Under the pieces are notes generated by a model. That model saw only the letters and a program-made list of their open reading frames with translations, was not told where the DNA came from and did not search any database. From Synergistales bacterium (lineage in GTDB: Bacteria; Synergistota; Synergistia; Synergistales; JAFGMB01): a stretch of DNA of 64,000 nt. The DNA lies in NCBI GenBank assembly GCA_963666205.1, contig OY762654.1:896001-960000 (forward strand), in the 5' to 3' direction. The position numbers and the translations under genes are program-made. Of this stretch, positions 11,431 to 19,046 are shown one piece after another. Each line of letters starts with the position of its first letter. Within the stretch, counting starts at the first letter, position 1.

Positions 11431-12627
11431 TTGCCGGGCCTGGGGAGGTGTTCACTGATAGAAGGTGGTTTTCACAGGATTATTGTATCCTTGATCAGCG
11501 CTGTAATATTAGGCATTTTCCCCTGGGAACATTCTGCAATACCCTGGAATATTCCTCTGGAAAGTATTTCATGCTCTCAAGGGATGTTTCCCGGTGAAAT
11601 AAAAAACAAACTTAAAGATATTTCCGGTGGCCTTATATGTGGCATTATCTGGGGAATTATCGTAATAAGCACAACAGTTCCTGATCTATCGATTGTCTTA
11701 ATGTTTTTCGTTATTGTTATAAGTGGGGTTGCAGCTCCCTGGAGACATCCTGAAAATATCTTTTTTCCAGCCATGGTTTCGGGTGGCCTTCTCCTTCTGG
11801 CTCCACGGCAATCCCTGGCTATTTTACCCGTAGTACTGACTTTCAGTTTAACTCTGGGCCCCTTAATATCTATTTCAATTATCTTATTCATATCTAGTGT
11901 TCTTCTGGGGATCCTTAAAAACGGATATTCACTCTCCTTTACAATAACCTTGTTTTTTCTGGTCCTTTCCCGATCCATTGCCCTGGACATATCTTTAATA
12001 ACTGCGGAAATGCACTCTGCCAGGAATAGTCTTGAAGAACATCTGATCAGAAGAAAGATATACCGGTATTGCGGACTCGTTTTCCCATTGTTGATCTATC
12101 CGGTCTACGGACTCCCGGTTTTAAGAACAGTTCTCTTTTCAATGACAGCGGCTGCCCTTCTCCTGGAGGGAGGAAGAAGAGTCCTGCCTGGCATTAACAT
12201 AGTTCTGAGAAAGATCTTCAGCCCGGTTGGTAAGGGAGAAGAAGCCTTCCATACTTCCGGGACAACATATTATCTTACTGGTTCAGCCCTGGCATGCCTT
12301 TTCCCAGGTGGAACAGGGCCTTTATCGCTGATAATGCTCACCCTTGGGGATGCATGGGCTGTTCTGACCGGAAAACGATGGGGACAACATTACTGGATAT
12401 CAGGAAAAACCATCGAGGGCAGCCTGGGATGTCTCTTTATCTGCATATTGGCTGGTCTTTCATTTGTTCTATTTACAGGAGGAAATAACATTTCTCCCTT
12501 TTCTGTTGTAATTGGTGCCATTGCGGCAACCCTTACGGAAGCGCTCTTCAGAGGATCTCTGGATAATCTCATGATAGCTCCTTCCACAGCAGCTGTAATT
12601 TACATCTGCAATACATTTATTTTTTAG
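11431..12627 (+). CDS. Membrane protein: degenerate PlsY-like N-half + phytol/dolichol kinase-like (CTP_transf family) C-half
   Basis: C-half has RRKIYR, SGTTYY, GDAWAVLTGK, KTIEGS and DNL motifs; N-half polytopic; start uncertain. Confidence 0.7.
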   Translation: MPGLGRCSLIEGGFHRIIVSLISAVILGIFPWEHSAIPWNIPLESISCSQGMFPGEIKNKLKDISGGLICGIIWGIIVISTTVPDLSIVLMFFVIVISGVAAPWRHPENIFFPAMVSGGLLLLAPRQSLAILPVVLTFSLTLGPLISISIILFISSVLLGILKNGYSLSFTITLFFLVLSRSIALDISLITAEMHSARNSLEEHLIRRKIYRYCGLVFPLLIYPVYGLPVLRTVLFSMTAAALLLEGGRRVLPGINIVLRKIFSPVGKGEEAFHTSGTTYYLTGSALACLFPGGTGPLSLIMLTLGDAWAVLTGKRWGQHYWISGKTIEGSLGCLFICILAGLSFVLFTGGNNISPFSVVIGAIAATLTEALFRGSLDNLMIAPSTAAVIYICNTFIF

Positions 12628-12680
12628 GAGAAAAAAGGTGATCTTTGTAAAGGGCTATTTCAGAACAGGAGGGATCATGT

Positions 12681-15071
12681 ATGGAAAACTTCGAACTGAT
12701 GGGCAAATTCTACCTCGGAAAAGAAATGGATATCGAGAAGAGAAAAATCACCGATAATATACTACTTTATGATTCAAAGGATCTTACAACCCATGCAATG
12801 ATAATCGGAATGACGGGAAGCGGGAAAACAGGGCTTGGAATGGCCCTCCTTGAAGAAGCTCTTATGGACAATATACCGGTAATAGCAATTGATCCCAAGG
12901 GTGATATAACCAATCTCCTCCTCTCCTTCCCAGATCATATGACAGAGGACTATCTGCCTTGGATCAACCTGGACGAGGCTGCGTCAGAGGGTTTTTCTGC
13001 CTCTCAATATGCATCCCGGGAAGCTGAAAAATGGAAAAAAGGGCTTGCTGGATGGGGAATTGGAGGAGACAGGATAATTAAAATGAGAGAATCGGTCAAT
13101 TTCAGCATTTTTACTCCAGGAAGTGATTCGGGGATCAGTGTAAATATGCTGGGATCCTTCCGATGTCCCCCGGAAAATATAATCCATGATCATGATATTC
13201 TTATCGAAAAGGTCCAGAATACTACATCCAATCTGCTATCCCTCCTGAATATTGAATCTGACCCATTATCAGGAAAAGAAAACCTCCTTATATCAAAGAT
13301 ATTTGAACATACATGGAAAGAAGGCATGGACGCAGATCTGCCATTGATAATAAACAGGATCCAGGATCCCCCCTTCAATAAAATAGGTATAATGTCAACA
13401 GATTCTTTCTATCCTCCCAGCGAGCGTTTCAAACTTGCCATGACCATTAACCAGGTCCTGGCATCGCCTTCCTTCAGCCAGTGGATGACAGGAGTTCCAC
13501 TTGAAATGGGAAATTTATTTCATACTCCGGAAGGTAAACCCCGGGCTTCGATCTTCACAATTTCTCATCTTTCAGATAATGAGAGGATGTTCTTCATCTC
13601 CATGCTTCTGGGGGAATTGATCTCCTGGATGAGATCCAGGTCTGGAACTTCAAGCCTCAGGGCTATTGTCTATATCGATGAAGTATTCGGATACATGCCT
13701 CCCGTTAAAGAGCCGCCCTCCAAAGGTCCCCTTCTCACTCTTCTTAAACAGGCAAGAGCCTTTGGCATAGGAGTGGTTCTGTCCACTCAGAACCCTGTAG
13801 ATCTGGATTACAGAGGACTTTCAAATATAGGAACCTGGTTCATAGGAAGGCTTCAGACTCAACGTGATAAAGACCGGGTCCTTGAAGGGATGGAGAAACT
13901 TGCAGATACCGAAGAATATGACCGGCAATTTCTTGACAAGGCTATATCCGGACTGAACAGGAGAGAATTCCTTCTTAACAATATTCACGAGAATAGCCCT
14001 TCAATTTTCAGTACCCGCTGGGTCATGTCTTACCTCAGGGGACCTCTCTCAAGGGAACAGATCCGATCACTTATGAAAGACAGAAAAAAGGGATCTGAAT
14101 CGCCAGGGGACATGGTCAGAGAAGAACCATCCAGGGGAAAGAGCCTGATTAGCCCCATCAAGCCAGTTATCCCCCCTGATATAAATGAATATTTTCTTGC
14201 CCCTCCTGACGGATCAGTTTCAGTAACATACAAACCATGTCTCCTTGGAATCGCAGAAACTTGCTATTCACAATCCAGCATGGGAATTGATGAAAAAATT
14301 ACATACATCCTGGAAACAGAATCTCCCTCCAGCGGCCAGGAACCGGACTGGGGGAAAGCAGTTAACCTGGAAATGGATCCGGAAGATATCCATACAGAAG
14401 CTTTGGCTCATGCTGATTTTATGGAACTCCCCAGCACCATGGCAGAATCCCGTAATTACAGAAAATGGAAAAAGGAATTCATCAAATGGATCAGGCAGAA
14501 CAGACCTCTGGTTATATTCAGGAACAGATCATTAAAAATGATTGGACTTCCTGGAGAAAAAAAGGGGGATTTTGAAATAAGGATAGAAGAAACACTCAGG
14601 GAAAAAAGAGACCTGGATGTTGAAGATTTGAGAAAAAAATATGACAGTAAAATGAAAACCCTTCAAAAACAGCTGATAGTAGCAGAACAATCCATTGCAC
14701 GGGAAAGTGAACAGGCAAACAGCAGGAACATCGAAACTGTAATATCCTTTGGCTCAGCTCTTGCGGGAGCATTACTGGGCAGAAAAAGCATAACCACAAC
14801 TTCCACATACAGACTCGGAACAGCTCTGTCCAGGGCAGGAAGGCTTAGAAAAGAGAAAATGGATGTTGAAAGGGCCCGGGAAAGGGCCCGACTTCTACAG
14901 GAACGGATATCCGCTCTTGAAAACAGCATGTCTGAAGAAATAGAAAGATTAAAGAACAACTTGGGAAAACATAGAAACTCGACTGAAGAATACCCTATAC
15001 GTGCCAGAAACAGTGATATTAACATCAAAGTCTTTGGCCTGGCATGGATACCGCTGAAACCTGACAGATAA
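12681..15071 (+). CDS. HerA/DUF87-like P-loop ATPase with C-terminal coiled coil
   Basis: Walker A GMTGSGKT, IDPKGD, Walker B YIDE, KQARAFG and STQNP. Confidence 0.85.
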   Translation: MENFELMGKFYLGKEMDIEKRKITDNILLYDSKDLTTHAMIIGMTGSGKTGLGMALLEEALMDNIPVIAIDPKGDITNLLLSFPDHMTEDYLPWINLDEAASEGFSASQYASREAEKWKKGLAGWGIGGDRIIKMRESVNFSIFTPGSDSGISVNMLGSFRCPPENIIHDHDILIEKVQNTTSNLLSLLNIESDPLSGKENLLISKIFEHTWKEGMDADLPLIINRIQDPPFNKIGIMSTDSFYPPSERFKLAMTINQVLASPSFSQWMTGVPLEMGNLFHTPEGKPRASIFTISHLSDNERMFFISMLLGELISWMRSRSGTSSLRAIVYIDEVFGYMPPVKEPPSKGPLLTLLKQARAFGIGVVLSTQNPVDLDYRGLSNIGTWFIGRLQTQRDKDRVLEGMEKLADTEEYDRQFLDKAISGLNRREFLLNNIHENSPSIFSTRWVMSYLRGPLSREQIRSLMKDRKKGSESPGDMVREEPSRGKSLISPIKPVIPPDINEYFLAPPDGSVSVTYKPCLLGIAETCYSQSSMGIDEKITYILETESPSSGQEPDWGKAVNLEMDPEDIHTEALAHADFMELPSTMAESRNYRKWKKEFIKWIRQNRPLVIFRNRSLKMIGLPGEKKGDFEIRIEETLREKRDLDVEDLRKKYDSKMKTLQKQLIVAEQSIARESEQANSRNIETVISFGSALAGALLGRKSITTTSTYRLGTALSRAGRLRKEKMDVERARERARLLQERISALENSMSEEIERLKNNLGKHRNSTEEYPIRARNSDINIKVFGLAWIPLKPDR

Positions 15072-15127
15072 AGGGATCGGAAACCGGCTCCCTTCTGTCG
15101 AGGACAGGAATTCAGCAATATTGTTTC

Positions 15128-15156
15128 TTGACATGAAATAAGAAAAAGATTAGTAT
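15128..15156 (+). promoter_or_regulatory. Sigma70-type promoter
   Basis: TTGACA-17 nt-TAGTAT. Confidence 0.7.
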
Positions 15157-15194
15157 TTTGAACACTGCGAAAATTTATTCAAGGAGGGATCACA

Positions 15195-15287
15195 ATGGCA
15201 AAGAATTTCACTGGACTATATGTGTATTTCATATATTTTATTATTTTTGCCTCCTGCGGATCCCCTCCTGGTTTGATCGGTAGTTAA
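15195..15287 (+). CDS. Putative attenuator leader peptide MAKNFTGLYVYFIYFIIFASCGSPPGLIGS
   Basis: AAGGAGG SD at 15181-15187; codons 8-18 are all Phe/Tyr/Ile/Leu/Val; followed by a terminator. Confidence 0.75.
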   Translation: MAKNFTGLYVYFIYFIIFASCGSPPGLIGS

Positions 15288-15306
15288 CGCTATTGTACAG
15301 ATTCAG

Positions 15307-15339
15307 GGCCGGGTTCCGAAAGGGAACCCGGCCTTTTTT
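15307..15339 (+). terminator. Attenuator intrinsic terminator
   Basis: GGCCGGGTTCC-GAAAG-GGAACCCGGCC (11-bp stem) + T6, upstream of the permease start. Confidence 0.85.
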
Positions 15340-15433
15340 ATATCCTTTGATCCAAAAGGAGGTGCTAGCTATCCGGGAATAATTTCGGACAACGGGATTC
15401 AATAAAGGACGTCATTCATTTCCAGTCAGAAAG

Positions 15434-16609
15434 GTGGAGAATCATATGGAAGATAAGAAGAAAACAGGCGGTTTTTCGTGGTTCATGGGTTCAAGCTGGT
15501 ACAAGAAATATCTTTTACCCGGTTTTATAGCTCAATCTGTAGTTGTAGCAGGAGGTTACGGAACAGGGAGAGAACTGGTCGAATACTTTGCCAATTACGG
15601 CCCCCTAGGCGGCCTTATGGGAATGTTCCTCATAACCATCGTTCTCTGGGCCCTGGTCTTCGGTGTCAGTTACGAATTTGCCAGGACCTTTCAGGCCTAT
15701 GACTACCGATCATTTTTCAAGGCTCTCCTGGGACCCGGATGGGTCCTGTATGAGATCTGCTACATCGTTCTACTCCTCCTGGTCCTTGGAGTTGTAGCAG
15801 CAACATCAGGAGCAATATTCCTGGAATCCTTCGGGATGCCCTTCATGGCAGGAGCAGGTCTTTTCCTGATAGGTATTGCAGTCCTTACCTACTGGGGAAC
15901 AAGTGCCCTGGAAGTTGTAATGTCCTGGTGGTCATACCTTCTTTACGCAGTTTTCCTGGCCTTTCTCCTTGTAGGCCTTTCAAAGGTCGGAGGTTCCATA
16001 TCCAGCACACTCAGCCTTGGCGAAGTAAAACCGGGATGGGCTATGGGCGGATTCAAATACGCCTTCTACAATCTTGGGACTTTCCCGGCCGTCCTTTTCA
16101 GCCTTAATTTCATAAAAAGCCGCAGGGAAGCTATTATTTCAGGTATCTGCACTGCCATTATTACCATGCTTCCCGGATTTTTCGTTTACCTTGTAACCAT
16201 AGGTTTCTACCCTGATATTTTATCGGTTGATGTCCCTTCATACTACATCCTCCGGGAGATCAGCCCCTGGCTTCTTCCGATCTTCCTTGTTGTCCTATTC
16301 GGCACAATGATAGAAACCGGAGCAGGATTTATCCACGCCGTAAATGAAAGGATCAATTCTGTCCTCGTCGAAAAAAATAACAGGGGACTTTCAAAAATGC
16401 AGAGGGGTATTCTTGGAGGTGTTATGGCATCCATGGGACTGGGCGTAGCTTCATACGGTCTTATTGGACTTATAGCAAAGGGCTATGGTACCATCAGCTG
16501 GGGTTTCTTTATCCTTCATGGTGTAGCCCTCTTTACAATTGGAATTTATAAAATGCATAAAAGGAAGACCTCACAAGAAAGTGAACCTGCCTATTCAACA
16601 GAAGGATAG
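15434..16609 (+). CDS. YkvI-like membrane permease (probable amino-acid transporter)
   Basis: VVAGGYGTGRELVEYF motif; about 10-11 TM helices. Confidence 0.8.
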   Translation: MENHMEDKKKTGGFSWFMGSSWYKKYLLPGFIAQSVVVAGGYGTGRELVEYFANYGPLGGLMGMFLITIVLWALVFGVSYEFARTFQAYDYRSFFKALLGPGWVLYEICYIVLLLLVLGVVAATSGAIFLESFGMPFMAGAGLFLIGIAVLTYWGTSALEVVMSWWSYLLYAVFLAFLLVGLSKVGGSISSTLSLGEVKPGWAMGGFKYAFYNLGTFPAVLFSLNFIKSRREAIISGICTAIITMLPGFFVYLVTIGFYPDILSVDVPSYYILREISPWLLPIFLVVLFGTMIETGAGFIHAVNERINSVLVEKNNRGLSKMQRGILGGVMASMGLGVASYGLIGLIAKGYGTISWGFFILHGVALFTIGIYKMHKRKTSQESEPAYSTEG

Positions 16610-16675
16610 ATGAACAAGGGTCAGGATGCAGGGAATCATTGAGGCATCCTGACCCTTTTCATACTTCAATAGGGA

Positions 16676-18076
16676 GTGATAATGGTGAAGTTCCAGGGAA
16701 TAGAGAAATATACGACGAAGAATATCAGAAAGAATCTCGAAACTGCTCTTATGGACGAAGAATACATCCCAAGGGGCTCTTCCATCAAGTATTATCCTCT
16801 TGCAGTGGAAAGAGCAGAAGGATCACTCGTCTGGGACAGGGACGGCAACAGGTATATTGATTTTCTCACCAGTGCAGCTGTCTATAATATCGGGCATTGC
16901 CATCCCCGGGTTGTAAAAGCTGTTAAGGATCAGGCAGACAAGGTATTCAACTACATAACAGGCTATTTCTACCAGGAAAATCCAGCCCGACTGGCAAAAC
17001 TGCTGTCGGAAATCACTCCAGGAAACTTTAAAAAAAAGGTAACCTTCGGTTTTTCAGGTTCGGATGCTAACGATTCAGCAATGAAGGCTGCCCGCGCCTA
17101 TACCGGGAAAAAATACATACTTTCCTTCAAGGAATCCTATCATGGAACCACCTATGGTTCTCTTGCCATTACCGGAATTATCGATGAAAGCACAAAAGAA
17201 TGTGTATATCCCCTCGATGGGGTGGGTTTTGTTGAATTCCCGGACCCCCTGAGAAATTCCTGGGGAATTGACGGGTACAGGGAACCCGAGATCCTTTCAG
17301 AAAAAGCACTTCAGGCGATCAGATCCAGGATCGACGAATTACAGGGAGACGTTGCAGGGATAATCCTTGAACCTATCCAGGGAGACTGTGGAGCTGTCAT
17401 TCCTCCGTCAGGCTTTATGAAGGACCTTAAACTTCTTTGTGAAGAAAAGGGGATCCTTTTCATTTCAGAGGAGATACAGTCCGGGATGGGAAGAACGGGA
17501 AAGATGTGGGCTATAGAACTTTTCGATGTGGAACCTGACATAATAGTTGCAGGAAAAGCTCTGGGCGGAGGATTACCCATATCGGCAGTAATAGGAAAAA
17601 CTGAAATAATGGACAGTGTCCCTCCCCCACTCTTCTGTTTTACTCACCTTGGACATGCACTGAATACAGGAGCGGCTATAGAGACAATAGGAGTTACTCT
17701 GGATGAGGATCTGATGCAGCAGGCCCTGGACAACGGAGAATATCTTAAAGCCGGATTTGATTCCATGGCCCAACGCTTCGACATCATAGGAGATATCAGA
17801 TACAGGGGACTGCTGTTTGGTGTTGATATTGTCAGAAAAGGGACAGAAAAAGACCCGGACAGGGATATCGCTCTAAAGATATGCTGGAGAGCCTGGGAAA
17901 AGGGTCTTATCATGATAACCTTCGGCAAACATGGGAACGTCCTCAGGATCGCACCTCCGCTGAATATAGGTAAGGACCTTCTTGATGAGGCCCTCAGGAT
18001 AATTGAAGAATCCATCGTTGACGTTCTGGATGGAAGGGTATCCGATGAAGCAATAAGATATTTGCAGGGCTGGTAG
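16676..18076 (+). CDS. Class III PLP enzyme, probable amino-acid racemase (Ile 2-epimerase/BAR-like, GABA-AT fold)
   Basis: [21 protein letters not shown] (Asp), QSGMGRTG and GKALGGG motifs. Confidence 0.75.
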
Positions 18077-18160
18077 GTAAAAGATAGCCCGGAGACACTG
18101 TCATAAAACGATGTTTCCGGGCCTGAATAGTTTTATCCTGTAACTGCAGGAAACAAACCT

Positions 18161-18880
18161 TTATCTCGAAAAGCTTATAGCCTTCCTGGGGCAGGAATCT
18201 ATACAGTTTCCGCAGAATATACATTCCGGGTCGTACATTGATCCTTTCTGAACCATATCCATCACATCAATGCTCATGGGACAGTTTCTGCTGCATATCC
18301 CGCAATTCACGCATTTGTCTTTGTCTGCAGATAAACGCAGTACCGGCAGACCTGCTTTCCTTGAAATATTCCAGCCTACGACCATAAAAGGCGCAAGCAT
18401 GCATATATAATGACAGAAAGCTCTTTTCCCCAGAATAAATGAAAGACACAGAATAAAGCCCATAGCTCCATAGTAAAGGATATATGCAGAAGGATCGGCA
18501 AGGGATACCCCGAATCTTGTCCTGTAAAACAGATCAAGGGAAGTGAATCCTCCTGCCCCTGTAGCGAAAAGGACTAGCATAATCAACCAGGGAGCCCAGA
18601 TCAGGTATTTTATCCAGTTAAGCCTACCCCCCCTGGCAGGTGCATTATTAACATGAAATGCCCATTCCTGAAAGGCTCCTGCAGGACAGGCCCATCCGCA
18701 GAAAGCCCTGCCCTGGAAAAGAGAAAACAGAAAAAGAAAAAACAGAAAAACGAGACTACCTGTTACTATGCCTTTCTTTGCTCCCTGTATTATAAGAATT
18801 GGCGAAAGGTAGAACATTGTTACAGGGAGAAATAGAAAGGAAATAATAAGAATAGCTTTCCGGATCTCCTGCCGTTTCAT
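18161..18880 (-). CDS. Membrane 4Fe-4S binding protein (NapH/polyferredoxin-like)
   Basis: CGWACP in the membrane part; two CxxCxxCxxxCP motifs. Confidence 0.85.
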   Translation of the reverse strand: MKRQEIRKAILIISFLFLPVTMFYLSPILIIQGAKKGIVTGSLVFLFFLFLFSLFQGRAFCGWACPAGAFQEWAFHVNNAPARGGRLNWIKYLIWAPWLIMLVLFATGAGGFTSLDLFYRTRFGVSLADPSAYILYYGAMGFILCLSFILGKRAFCHYICMLAPFMVVGWNISRKAGLPVLRLSADKDKCVNCGICSRNCPMSIDVMDMVQKGSMYDPECIFCGNCIDSCPRKAISFSR

Positions 18881-19046
18881 ATGCTTTTCCTCCTGGTCTA
18901 ACCTGTCATTAATCAGGCAGTTCCTTAAATGTTAAGTTATTCCCGGATTATCCATTTTCGGTTATCTGGAATGATACAATATTTTCTTTCATGATAAACT
19001 TGGTTAGCCCAAATCACAATAACTTTTACGAAGGGACGGCATAGCA

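Follow-up and report, generated by a model that had tools for sequence, protein, structure and literature searches.

Results

Genes and features of the locus

The window analyzed in the present study is a stretch of 64,000 nucleotides from a Synergistales bacterium (contig OY762654.1). It contains a gene for a YkvI-family membrane permease followed by a gene for a predicted amino-acid racemase, and a short leader with its own promoter and terminator lies upstream of the permease. The features are as follows, in coordinates of the window.

15128..15156, plus strand: sigma-70-type promoter, with TTGACA at 15128-15133, a 17-nt spacer, and TAGTAT at 15151-15156
15181-15188, plus strand: leader ribosome-binding site AAGGAGGG, 7 nt upstream of ATG 15195
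15181..15191, plus strand: region 1, the leader ribosome-binding site (AAGGAGGGATC), able to pair with region 2
15195..15287, plus strand: leader open reading frame of 30 codons, translated as MAKNFTGLYVYFIYFIIFASCGSPPGLIGS
15216..15248, plus strand: control codons 8-18 (L Y V Y F I Y F I I F); 9 of the 13 codons before region 2 encode Phe, Tyr, or Ile
15257..15275, plus strand: region 2, C-rich (CGGATCCCCTCCTGG...), within the leader reading frame; its partner is region 1 or region 3
15278..15295, plus strand: central hairpin found in the folds; its loop holds the leader stop codon TAA (15285-15287)
15303..15318, plus strand: region 3, the terminator 5' arm and the 3' strand of the predicted antiterminator (truncated-transcript fold)
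15305..15339, plus strand: intrinsic terminator with a 13-bp stem, a 5-nt loop, and a T-run (terminator scan)
15354..15364, plus strand: orphan box resembling a ribosome-binding site, AAAAGGAGGTG, 3' of the terminator
15446..16609, plus strand: YkvI-family membrane permease, 387 aa, named after its homologues
16610..16662, plus strand: hairpin followed by UUUU in the permease-racemase gap (fold energy and z-score)
16682..18076, plus strand: predicted PLP-dependent racemase with a class-III aminotransferase fold, broad-specificity (BAR) type (Pfam PF00202, 3.5e-101)

The start of the permease was placed at ATG 15446 in place of GTG 15434, and that of the racemase is most likely ATG 16682 in place of GTG 16676. 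No Pfam or NCBIfam model matched the permease. In their sources, homologues with 55-86% identity carry the name 'YkvI family membrane protein' or 'uncharacterized membrane protein YkvI'; the permease itself was 96% identical to a protein of an Acetomicrobium hydrogeniformans MAG.

The PF00202 domain spans residues 41-445 of the racemase. The best structural match, which extended from end to end, was PDB 9wrf (E 2.5e-194, 649.9 bits), which from its name alone we take to be the broad-specificity racemase of Pyrococcus horikoshii. The next-best solved racemase relatives (E about 1e-103) were isoleucine 2-epimerase (PDB 4ysn, 5wya, and 5ll2) and alanine/serine racemase (PDB 9wqz). These enzymes have PLP dependence and the class-III fold in common with the window racemase, but are much more distant from it than BAR (about 350 vs 650 bits), and GABA transaminases scored 256 bits or less. 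No NCBIfam equivalog cut-off was reached by the racemase (best score 470.5 vs 608). With BAR as its closest characterized relative and the PF00202 fold, the protein agrees with its initial annotation as a probable amino-acid racemase. The comparison places it in the BAR group, nearer to BAR than to the transaminases, and predicts activity on hydrophobic amino acids.

The hairpin between the two genes had been overlooked in the initial annotation. The 86-nt fold has an energy of -33.1 kcal/mol (z = -5.24), and the hairpin is kept in locus L001. In the window, it may partially uncouple the two genes and lower the co-expression of the racemase. The downstream neighbors encode a NapH-like ferredoxin protein (18161-18880, minus strand), a 156-aa protein without a family match, and an acyl-ACP thioesterase. 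Searches of the neighbors with Pfam and NCBIfam found no gene for an Lrp/AsnC-type regulator adjoining the operon.

The leader upstream of the permease

The initial annotation described a TTGACA-17-TAGTAT promoter, a ribosome-binding site, and a 30-codon reading frame with LYVYFIYFIIF at codons 8-18, and each of these elements was present as described. The promoter had 10 of 12 matches and was the best of 8 promoter-like sites found by a simple scan of 14500-18600. A separate promoter beyond the terminator, which would have spoken against control by the leader, was not found by simple scan on the plus strand up to the permease start. The terminator and its T-run were also located; however, the stem (15305-15335) has 13 pairs, 9 of them G-C, rather than the 11 bp originally assigned. 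The stem alone has an energy of -26.8 kcal/mol, and the T-run reaches 15339.

The minimum-energy fold of a transcript cut before the terminator 3' arm (-26.9 kcal/mol) contained both pairings that had been proposed for an antiterminator, CGGATCCC (15257-64) with GGGTTCCG (15311-18) and CCTG (15267-70) with CAGG (15304-07). In the full-length minimum-energy fold, the leader ribosome-binding site (15182-15191) paired with 15259-15269. This second interaction had not been noticed previously. The fold of 15160-15345 had a z-score of -4.70 and that of 15240-15345, the segment suggested for folding by the initial annotation, had a z-score of -3.21; in each case 0 of 200 shuffles were as stable. All folding energies were computed for 37°C, and the host genus is presumably thermophilic.

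Conservation in related loci

The window was compared with 80 related loci, all of the relatives being metagenome-assembled contigs (658,103 bases with the window). The search for Phe/Tyr/Ile-type leaders and terminators before homologous permeases, proposed in the initial annotation, was positive: a promoter-leader-terminator unit lies upstream of permease homologues in 23 of the 80 loci, which gives 24 further copies and 25 with the window. A covariance model derived from these copies recovered exactly the same 25 from the window and the 80 loci (64-141 bits; next match 24.6 bits), and nhmmer agreed with this set. All 23 leader-bearing loci are labelled Synergistota, Synergistales, Synergistaceae, Thermovirgaceae, or Acetomicrobium.

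A TTGACA-17-TANNNT promoter occurs at a similar upstream distance in 24 of the 25 copies. Every copy has a leader reading frame with its own ribosome-binding site and a terminator at the equivalent position, and all 25 units lie directly 5' of transporter genes on the same strand. The box TTTCATAATGCATAT is conserved in the 5' UTR of 10 leaders, and a G-rich box was found by eye 3' of the terminator in about 23 of the 25 copies. In locus L027, a DUF997 protein precedes a sodium:solute symporter.

A racemase homologue adjoins the permease on the downstream side in 12 loci and on the upstream side in 11 Bacillota-type loci. In the latter, a crude scan found no leader upstream of the racemase (0 of 11). 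Since leaders also precede some permeases that have no racemase, the permease is considered to be the core target of the leader.

No Rfam 15 family reached its gathering threshold in the window region, the best overlap being the L20 leader (21.4 bits vs 58.7, E 0.77). Across the window region and 17 related loci, no T-box and no other Rfam family reached its threshold.

Alternative RNA structures

Regions 1 and 2 paired over at least 5 nt in 22 of 25 full-length folds, and regions 2 and 3 paired in 23 of 25 truncated folds. The earlier claim that the terminator 5' arm can pair with a segment following the control codons holds for 23 of the 25 copies. The terminator-state model was 80.6% paired (71.9% in shuffles) and had a covariation score of 0.334 (0.210 in shuffles); for both values, 0 of 500 shuffles reached the observed level. 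When partners were slid by 1-3 columns as a control, terminator-state pairing was 49-62%. Changes on both sides were found in 6 of 8 pairs of helix 2 (the central hairpin) and in 7 of 10 pairs of helix 3 (the terminator), which was 87.3% paired.

Matched duplexes were also compared with swapped duplexes in 21 representatives. The matched duplex was more stable for 1:2 (-20.3 vs -18.8 kcal/mol, p=0.003), for 2:3 (-23.8 vs -20.3 kcal/mol, p<5e-5), and for 3:4 (-26.7 vs -18.1 kcal/mol), and no such difference was present in three control pairings. With rank 17 among 22, the 2:3 duplex of the window belongs to the weaker ones. Covariation of the antiterminator on fixed alignment columns was not significant (70.8% paired vs 69.3% in shuffles, 38 of 500 reaching it). 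Regions 2 and 3 are conserved and have a high G/C content, so that some of the complementarity between them could follow from the anti-ribosome-binding-site segment and the G-rich terminator arms.

Geometry and kinetics of the proposed switch

Region 2 starts at nt 55-67 of the reading frame in all 25 copies; its start was placed by pairing with region 3 in 24 copies and by alignment in L008, the truncated fold of which lacks this pairing. Most copies have the last control codon 8-12 nt upstream of region 2 and the stop codon 5-13 nt downstream of it, and in 23 of 25 copies the stop codon keeps to a narrow window. In the exceptions, L016 and L020, the leader stop codon is lost and the reading frame runs through the terminator. 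The ribosome footprint was taken as about -15 to +12 nt relative to the A-site codon. With these positions, region 2 would be left exposed by a ribosome that stalls and covered by one that terminates.

In simulations with a ribosome footprint on any codon, the terminator state always won at equilibrium, even with all 5' sequence masked, and in the window it was 11.6 kcal/mol more stable than the antiterminator. Therefore, antitermination would have to be kinetic. The estimated barrier from the antiterminator to the terminator had a median of 9.7 kcal/mol and was 9.7 kcal/mol in the window.

Control codons

Across all copies, the 13-codon segments before region 2 comprise 325 residues, of which 142 are Phe, Tyr, Trp, or Ile, vs 14.2% in a background of 78,625 residues. 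Several codon classes were distinguished: Ile, Tyr, and Phe in the window and 10 other copies, Ile and Leu in L013, L015, and L027b, Tyr and Phe in L027a, and Trp, Phe, and Tyr in 9 copies. A lone Trp codon (TGG) heads the cluster in all 9 second-clade leaders and in no first-clade leader, except for one Trp at the end of the 13-codon segment of L008. On one contig, three leader copies in a row represent two codon classes. The RNA frame is kept and the codon class is swapped between paralogous operons on one contig.

The initial annotation also pointed out the lipobox-like FASC of the window peptide. The reading of the peptide as a small lipoprotein was rejected; a conserved lipobox is absent, and only 2 of the 25 leaders, those of the window and of its 96% relative L001, carry FASC or a Cys box equivalent to it.

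Discussion

Based on these sequence comparisons, we consider it very probable that a ribosome-mediated (leader-peptide) transcription attenuator controls the operon of the YkvI-family importer and the broad-specificity racemase. This reading, first advanced in the initial annotation, is based on the parts of the leader and how they are conserved, on the alternative pairings, and on the geometry, and is supported by the leader units in 23 related loci, alternative pairing in 23 of 25 copies, and the fitting positions of codons and stop.

Transcription would start from the promoter at 15128-15156, and a ribosome would load at the strong site and translate the 30-codon leader. When Tyr-, Phe-, and Ile-tRNAs are charged, the ribosome would reach the stop codon at 15285, cover the 3' half of region 2, and melt the central hairpin. 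Region 3 would then be free for region 4, the terminator would form, and transcription would end at the T-run. In the short RNA released, region 2 would bind region 1, such that the hydrophobic peptide would not be translated further. When one of these tRNAs is poorly charged, the ribosome would stall on codons 8-18, just 5' of region 2, and region 2 would pair with region 3 as soon as the latter is made. The choice between the two structures would be kinetic; this antiterminator would need to last only until the polymerase passes the T-run, and the permease and then the downstream racemase would be transcribed. If no ribosome is loaded, 1:2 and 3:4 would both form and transcription would terminate. 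The importer would presumably take up hydrophobic amino acids, and the racemase may convert D-forms into usable L-forms, by analogy with PH0137-PH0138 of P. horikoshii. We infer from this analogy a D-to-L scavenging role in this bacterium.

The switch might instead be set by an RNA-binding protein, a small-molecule ligand, or general translation capacity, with the Ile/Tyr/Phe codons being a by-effect of a U/A-rich unstructured spacer. A U/A-rich control tract would encode hydrophobic residues whatever the frame, and the other frames are also open (+2 in 16 and +1 in 8 of 25 copies). L011 has none of the four residues in its 13 codons before region 2. The TTTCATAATGCATAT box and the G-rich box beyond the terminator have no role in the simple attenuation model and could be binding sites, and a switch in which the ribosome-binding site pairs with region 2 would respond to whether any ribosome loads. 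However, a strong ribosome-binding site precedes the start codon by a fixed distance in 25 of 25 copies, and neither the narrow placement of the stop codon in 23 of these nor the exchange of codon classes within a retained RNA frame on one contig is in line with a mere spacer. In every second-clade leader, the cluster begins with TGG, and Trp has no other codon. Furthermore, the alignment contains no conserved, structured, aptamer-like core between regions 1 and 2, and no Rfam family matched. We regard a switch of this type as unlikely.

An independent micropeptide gene with its own promoter and terminator, the product of which would be a small lipoprotein or a transporter subunit in the membrane, with the permease transcribed separately or by leaky read-through, appears highly improbable. 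The strength of the terminator would fit such a gene, as would the 14-residue hydrophobic run and the FASC of the window peptide, and small membrane subunits accompany some transporters, such as the DUF997 protein before the symporter in L027. However, this Cys box is confined to two leaders, the peptides have little in common outside the codon cluster and the part that region 2 encodes, and close pairs (the window and L001; L013 and L015) differ by amino-acid-changing substitutions. The hydrophobic runs lack the length for a membrane span or are interrupted by Gly and Pro (NWFYYPGNPGG, FIYGIILYPAL). The simple scan found no promoter-like site 3' of the terminator, and this explanation gives the conserved alternative pairing of the terminator arm no role. 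A module of the type I toxin-antitoxin kind, in which a small toxic peptide would have no connection with the genes downstream, is hardly credible: the peptide is short and hydrophobic, its ribosome-binding site is sequestered by a long-range helix in the mature RNA, as in type I toxin mRNAs, and there is a weak promoter-like site on the minus strand (15201-15172, 9 of 12 matches), but this site is directed away from the reading frame, the unit always directly precedes same-strand transporter genes, the peptide sequence is not conserved, and the Trp/Phe/Tyr-clade copies are too weakly hydrophobic for membrane action.

Leader-peptide attenuation is textbook knowledge where the biosynthetic operons of Proteobacteria are concerned, and certain Firmicutes and Actinobacteria also have it. 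In the literature, we found no account of leader-peptide attenuation in Synergistota, nor of its occurrence upstream of a YkvI-family transporter or of a racemase. The type of control is known, and the leader before the YkvI importer-racemase pair in Synergistota would be a new example.

T-box leaders before amino-acid transporters of Firmicutes bind tRNA directly and have no translated leader. The proposed attenuator resembles them in reading the charging of specific tRNAs and in the choice between terminator and antiterminator before transporter genes, but would have a translated leader and has no T-box match by Rfam. The classical attenuators of Proteobacteria are trpL, pheL, hisL, leuL, ilvL, and thrL (Yanofsky 1981). 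The present leader is similar to these in its predicted short peptide, its cluster of regulatory codons, its mutually exclusive antiterminator and terminator hairpins, and termination as the predicted default when the leader is fully translated or untranslated. In contrast to these systems, it matches no Rfam leader family in sequence or structure, its host phylum is Synergistota, and its targets are an importer and a racemase rather than biosynthetic enzymes. The arrangement of the RNA also differs: region 1 is the leader ribosome-binding site instead of the control-codon segment, the control codons are located in the loop between regions 1 and 2, and the stop codon follows region 2.

A supplementary table published in 2019 (PMC6429828) lists a predicted aromatic-amino-acid leader-peptide attenuator before a sodium-dependent tryptophan transporter, further transporters for amino acids, and shikimate-pathway genes. 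By its description in that table, it is similar to the present leader in the predicted peptide before amino-acid transporters and the aromatic signal; however, its hosts are Bacilli, Clostridia, and Erysipelotrichia, and its transporter families are different. In the same source, the table for Thermovirga lienii gave no match to 'ykvI'.

Kawakami et al. (2026; PMC13628549) describe a BAR cluster in P. horikoshii that consists of PH0137 (a YkvI-family transporter), PH0138 (a broad-specificity racemase), and PH0140 (the DARP regulator). According to these authors, the YkvI-racemase pair is co-induced when D-allo-Ile replaces L-Ile, the racemase acts on Met, Leu, Ile, Phe, and others, and a DNA-binding feast/famine protein senses L-Ile versus D-allo-Ile at the promoter. 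The window operon has the same gene order, permease then racemase, and a closely related racemase, and the rise in expression without L-Ile is similar to the control proposed here. However, no gene for a DARP-type regulator adjoins the window operon. Its sensor would be ribosome stalling, which reads tRNA charging and does not need a D-amino acid as an inducer.

Beyond the attenuator itself, we tentatively propose a wider model, which is plausible but short of probable. The leaders would form a modular Synergistota attenuator family built around one C-rich segment that is contested by similar purine-rich elements, namely, the leader ribosome-binding site, the terminator 5' arm, and perhaps the post-terminator box as a third. 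Sequestration of the ribosome-binding site would limit leader translation to a single co-transcriptional round, codon cassettes (Ile/Tyr/Phe, Ile/Leu, Tyr/Phe, and Trp/Phe/Tyr) swapped between paralogous operons would be labels of YkvI substrates, and D-amino-acid salvage would be switched by tRNA charging. If this is true, the single round of translation would avoid the production of hydrophobic peptide from terminated transcripts, and bacterial D-amino-acid salvage would be switched by tRNA charging, unlike the D-amino-acid sensing in Pyrococcus.

With the covariance model, the regulon may be mapped in genomes throughout Synergistota, and leaders missed by current RNA family libraries may be annotated. 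The control codons predict the YkvI cargo of each paralogue, namely, Ile/Tyr/Phe, Ile/Leu, Tyr/Phe, or Trp/Phe/Tyr. The results obtained support the view of the racemase as a supplier of L-amino acids for protein synthesis, and suggest that one salvage module is served by two sensors, an amino-acid-binding DNA-binding protein in Pyrococcus and, apparently, ribosome stalling in this bacterium.

Architecture of the operon and its leader

The initial annotation had described a promoter, a leader open reading frame with its ribosome-binding site, and a terminator upstream of a permease gene and a probable racemase gene. All of these features were found where it had placed them.

Features of the operon in the window (forward strand)
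15128-15156: promoter TTGACA-17-TAGTAT, the best promoter-like score within 14500-18600 (10/12)
15181-15188: leader ribosome-binding site AAGGAGGG, 7 nt upstream of the ATG
15195-15287: leader ORF, translated as MAKNFTGLYVYFIYFIIFASCGSPPGLIGS
15305-15335: terminator of 13 pairs, with a T-run to 15339
15446-16609: membrane protein of 387 aa, starting with ATG
From 16682: racemase of the class-III-aminotransferase fold (PF00202, 3.5e-101), starting with ATG

Folding of 15160-15345 gave z = -4.70, and 0/200 shuffled sequences were as stable. The shorter stretch 15240-15345, for which the initial annotation had proposed a folding analysis, gave z = -3.21, again with none of 200 shuffles equally stable. 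An Rfam search of 14000-19000 at E values up to 1 returned nothing relevant; the best overlapping match reached 21.4 bits, whereas its gathering score is 58.7.

Source records of homologues of the membrane protein carry the name "YkvI family membrane protein", and the window protein itself had zero Pfam or NCBIfam matches. The racemase aligned best with PDB 9wrf (649.9 bits, end to end); alanine/serine racemase and isoleucine 2-epimerase came next, at approximately 350 bits, with GABA transaminases at 256 bits or less. Its true start is predicted to be ATG 16682 from the 9wrf alignment and the sequence. Among the best 80 of at least 575 relatives, the nearest locus was from an Acetomicrobium hydrogeniformans metagenome-assembled genome (MAG), the permease of which is 96% identical. 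The source organism is a member of Synergistota.

A strong hairpin occupies 16610-16662, between the permease stop codon at 16609 and the racemase ATG. Its stem has about 14 bp with an outer extension of 5 bp, and UUUU comes after it. The 86-nt intergenic fold has an energy of -33.1 kcal/mol (z = -5.24), and the hairpin is kept in L001 (one of the loci fetched by homology to the permease), the changes in which preserve pairing. The gap between the two genes in other loci is only 16-56 nt. The hairpin may serve as a partial terminator within the operon or stabilize the mRNA, and it may lower racemase expression relative to that of the permease.

Immediately upstream of the operon, 11431-15071 encodes two proteins: one of 398 aa, which matched no family, and a HerA/FtsK-like P-loop ATPase of 796 aa. 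The matches of the latter in Pfam, NCBIfam, and PADLOC were weak (mad8 1.9e-14, HerA 5e-11) and all far under the curated cut-offs. These proteins may form a defence or DNA-translocation pair.

Distribution of the leader

Using an alignment of 25 permease homologues with the window protein as the query, a scan of genome contigs yielded at least 575 confirmed relatives. The best 80 loci, mostly on MAG contigs, were kept (L001, L002, and so on), and the 440 nt 5' of the permease were inspected in 32 of them, with terminators and small ORFs being located by a script. The initial annotation had proposed a search for Phe/Tyr/Ile leaders with terminators 5' of homologous permease-racemase pairs. Within the 80 loci kept, a unit with the layout seen in the window preceded the permease gene in 23, all of which carry Synergistota-type labels. 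With at least 575 relatives in total, this number is a minimum, and only for those 80 loci can the unit be called confined to Synergistota. In loci whose permease shares 56% identity or more with that of the window (35 in total), the unit was present in 23 and absent from 11; one locus (L010) was cut off. It was found in none of the remaining 45 loci (Bacillota, Aminicenantes, and others).

An additional copy, detected by nhmmer within L027, lies before an operon of DUF997, sodium:solute symporter, and amidohydrolase genes. A covariance model built on the resulting 25 copies recovered exactly those across the window and all 80 loci (658,103 bases), at 64-141 bits, with the next match at 24.6 bits. 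Neither nhmmer nor this model detected a second copy in the 64-kb window; the leader is therefore single-copy there.

The layout consists of a promoter, ribosome-binding site, ORF, C-rich segment, small hairpin, and GC-rich terminator. A TTGACA-17-TANNNT promoter lies 38-58 nt upstream of the leader start in 24/25 copies, and the ORF has 23-35 codons in 23/25, with L016 and L020 lacking a stop codon. Rfam at gathering thresholds found only tRNAs, and no T-box, in 17 related loci (12 Bacillota-type and 5 leaderless Synergistota). Eleven Bacillota-type loci were crudely scanned 5' of the racemase, and no Phe/Tyr/Trp/Ile-rich small ORF with a terminator was found; L079 had a single 10-residue ORF without a terminator.

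Two other boxes were observed. Between the -10 element and the leader ribosome-binding site, a conserved TTTCATAATGCA(T/C)AT box is present in L004, L005, L007, L008, L009, L042, L013, L015, and the second L027 copy, degenerate in L006 and the first L027 copy, and absent in the window and L001-L003. A G-rich box resembling an orphan ribosome-binding site lies at 15354-15364 in the window (AAAAGGAGGTG; GGAGGTGA or GGGGGTGATC in other copies). It occupies the same position, 10-25 nt 3' of the attenuator T-run, in about 23/25 copies as counted by eye, and is absent from L006 and L011. It has no canonical start codon downstream at the proper spacing and resembles the leader ribosome-binding site and the terminator 5' arm. 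It could offer the C-rich segment a third pairing partner or act as a site for ribosome standby or stabilization.

Putative control codons of the leader peptides

The leader peptides are alike mainly in the residues specified by the C-rich RNA (G-S-P-S-W, G-S-P-P, etc.) and in a codon cluster just 5' of it. Phe, Tyr, Trp, or Ile occupies 142/325 positions in the 13 codons before the C-rich segment, versus a background of 14.2% in 78,625 residues of long ORFs from the same loci. The window leader is the richest (9/13).

Classes of control codons
Ile+Tyr+Phe without Trp: window, L001-L009, L042 (L008 has one Trp at the end of its 13-codon stretch)
Ile+Leu: L013, L015, second L027 copy (..SIIILLSAL..)
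Tyr+Phe: first L027 copy (CYFYGYYFYF)
Trp+Phe+Tyr, with a single Trp codon first: L012, L016, L017, L020, L025, L026, L028, L031, L033

L027 and L015 overlap on contig JAXGNU010000006.1, on which three consecutive attenuators precede three different transporter operons.

Predicted attenuators on contig JAXGNU010000006.1
L027 3708-3871: Tyr/Phe leader before a YkvI permease
L027 5324-5484: Ile/Leu leader before DUF997, sodium:solute symporter, and amidohydrolase
L015 3720-3882: Ile/Leu leader before a YkvI permease and racemase

In these three, the codon cassette varies and the RNA frame is constant. This is exactly what would be predicted of an attenuator that reads codons, whereas neither a functional peptide nor a ligand-binding RNA predicts a constant frame with a changing cassette. 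Some observations count against codon reading. The L011 leader has no Phe/Tyr/Trp/Ile cluster (0/13). The U/A-rich tract would encode hydrophobic residues in any frame, and frame +2 is open in 16/25 copies and frame +1 in 8/25. Furthermore, the leader stop codon has been lost in the related MAG loci L016 (3737-3961) and L020 (from 2002), with TGG versus TAG in relatives, and the ORF extends through the terminator nearly to the permease start. A ribosome translating through would itself melt the terminator, and regulation may be altered or lost in these two loci. Readings of the leader peptide as a lipoprotein, membrane subunit, or type I toxin were rejected.

Alternative RNA pairings and the proposed switch

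We designate the leader ribosome-binding site, C-rich segment, terminator 5' arm, and terminator 3' arm as regions 1 to 4. In the full-length window fold, 15182-15191 (region 1) pairs with 15259-15269 (region 2), followed by a small hairpin, the loop of which holds the leader TAA stop codon, and then the terminator. Pairing of regions 1 and 2 over at least 5 nt occurred in 22/25 full-length folds. When the transcript was ended before region 4 and its first 60 nt were masked as a stand-in for the ribosome, regions 2 and 3 paired in 23/25 copies. In the window, this truncated fold (-26.9 kcal/mol) recovered and extended the antiterminator pairing proposed in the initial annotation. Pairing 2:3 excludes 1:2 plus 3:4, and vice versa.

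From a plain MAFFT alignment, RNAalifold found no more than 6 pairs of the terminator. Since that alignment is not structure-aware, per-sequence folds and a covariance-model alignment were used. On the model-fitted alignment, the terminator-state structure was 80.6% paired versus 71.9% for shuffles, with a covariation score of 0.334 versus 0.210; 0/500 shuffles reached either value. Sliding the partners by 1-3 columns reduced pairing to 49-62%. The antiterminator was not significant on fixed columns (70.8% versus 69.3% paired, reached by 38/500 shuffles). With regions 2 and 3 both conserved and in a register that varies between clades, we turned to a comparison free of any fixed register. In 21 representatives, with the near-duplicates L001, L013, L020, and L042 left out, the duplex energy of matched partners was set against that of swapped ones. 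The control pairings 1:3, 1:4, and 2:4 showed no gain for matched partners in this set.

Duplex energies, matched versus swapped partners (kcal/mol)
Pairing 1:2: matched -20.3, swapped -18.8, p=0.003
Pairing 2:3: matched -23.8, swapped -20.3, p<5e-5
Pairing 3:4: matched -26.7, swapped -18.1, p<5e-5

Region 2 starts at ORF nucleotides 55-67 in 25/25 copies (24 located by pairing to region 3, and L008, the truncated fold of which lacks that pairing, by alignment). In most copies, the last control codon begins 8-12 nt 5' of region 2, and the stop codon lies 5-13 nt 3' of it. The ribosome was assumed to cover about 15 nt on the 5' side of the A-site codon and 12 nt on its 3' side. A ribosome stalled at the control codons would thus have a footprint ending at the edge of region 2, leaving it free, and one at the stop codon would mask region 2 in its 3' half, along with the small hairpin.

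Equilibrium folding with the footprint placed at each codon, whether or not all sequence 5' of it was masked, did not displace the terminator; the exceptions were a handful of codons in L007, L012, and L031. In the window, the terminator state is favoured over the antiterminator state by 11.6 kcal/mol. The switch cannot be demonstrated thermodynamically; since the terminator wins at equilibrium, the choice must be kinetic, as it is in the classical trp attenuator. The antiterminator would form first and would have to persist while the polymerase crosses the T-run. A heuristic path search at 37°C gave a median antiterminator-to-terminator barrier of 9.7 kcal/mol (range 2.6-20.0; window 9.7), and the host is presumably a thermophile.

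Genes under predicted control and biological implications

A racemase homologue lies directly 3' of the permease in 12 loci (L001, L003-L007, L009-L011, L013, L015, and L032). In 11 Bacillota-type loci (L037, L038, L052, L056, L058, L069, L070, L072, L073, L075, and L079), a homologue with 39-49% identity lies directly 5' of the permease, the opposite order to the window, and no Synergistota-type leader was found. Since the two genes adjoin in both groups, the pair is conserved across phyla. A convergent class I/II aminotransferase gene (PF00155) lies on the opposite strand 3' of the permease in L012, L014, L017, L018, L019, L026, L028, and L033. This neighbour, which may be an aromatic or histidinol-phosphate-type aminotransferase, is common to the clade of permeases with 56-61% identity, whether the leader is present or not.

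What the pair does is known from Pyrococcus horikoshii (PMC13628549), in which PH0137 is a YkvI-family transporter and PH0138 is a broad-specificity racemase with substrates that include Met, Leu, Ile, and Phe. The two are co-induced when L-Ile is replaced by D-allo-Ile, and several hydrophobic amino acids can support growth of the archaeon in their D-form. With L-Ile, the feast/famine protein PH0140 occupies the PH0137 promoter, from which D-allo-Ile releases it (PMC13628549). In contrast to that cluster, no feast/famine-type regulator gene was found adjacent to the window operon, which has the leader instead. The leader appears to stand in for the missing adjacent regulator.

Leader-peptide attenuation is already a known kind of control. 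We found no earlier description of this Synergistota leader family, and the leader matches no Rfam family. Literature searches joining YkvI with a leader peptide returned nothing, those on attenuation in Synergistetes returned only unrelated work in which this family is not described, and those on YkvI with a racemase returned only the Pyrococcus work (PMC13628549). A search by term for "ykvI" gave zero matches in the supplementary tables of a Thermovirga lienii survey (PMC6429828), and a search on Acetomicrobium and D-amino acids returned only work on serine racemase homologues. Judging from the sequences, three features would be unusual: the ribosome-binding site of the leader itself serves as region 1, codon cassettes have probably been exchanged among paralogous operons, and the putative target is a D-amino-acid salvage module.

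The permease-racemase pair lies under 11/25 leaders, including that of the window. Leaders of the Trp/Phe/Tyr class precede the permease alone; in the loci of this class scanned further downstream (L012, L017, L026, L028, and L033), the next ORF is the convergent aminotransferase. One Ile/Leu leader heads the symporter operon. These permease-only and symporter targets suggest that the core logic of the family is the activation of an importer by a shortage of charged tRNA, to which the racemase was added in one clade.
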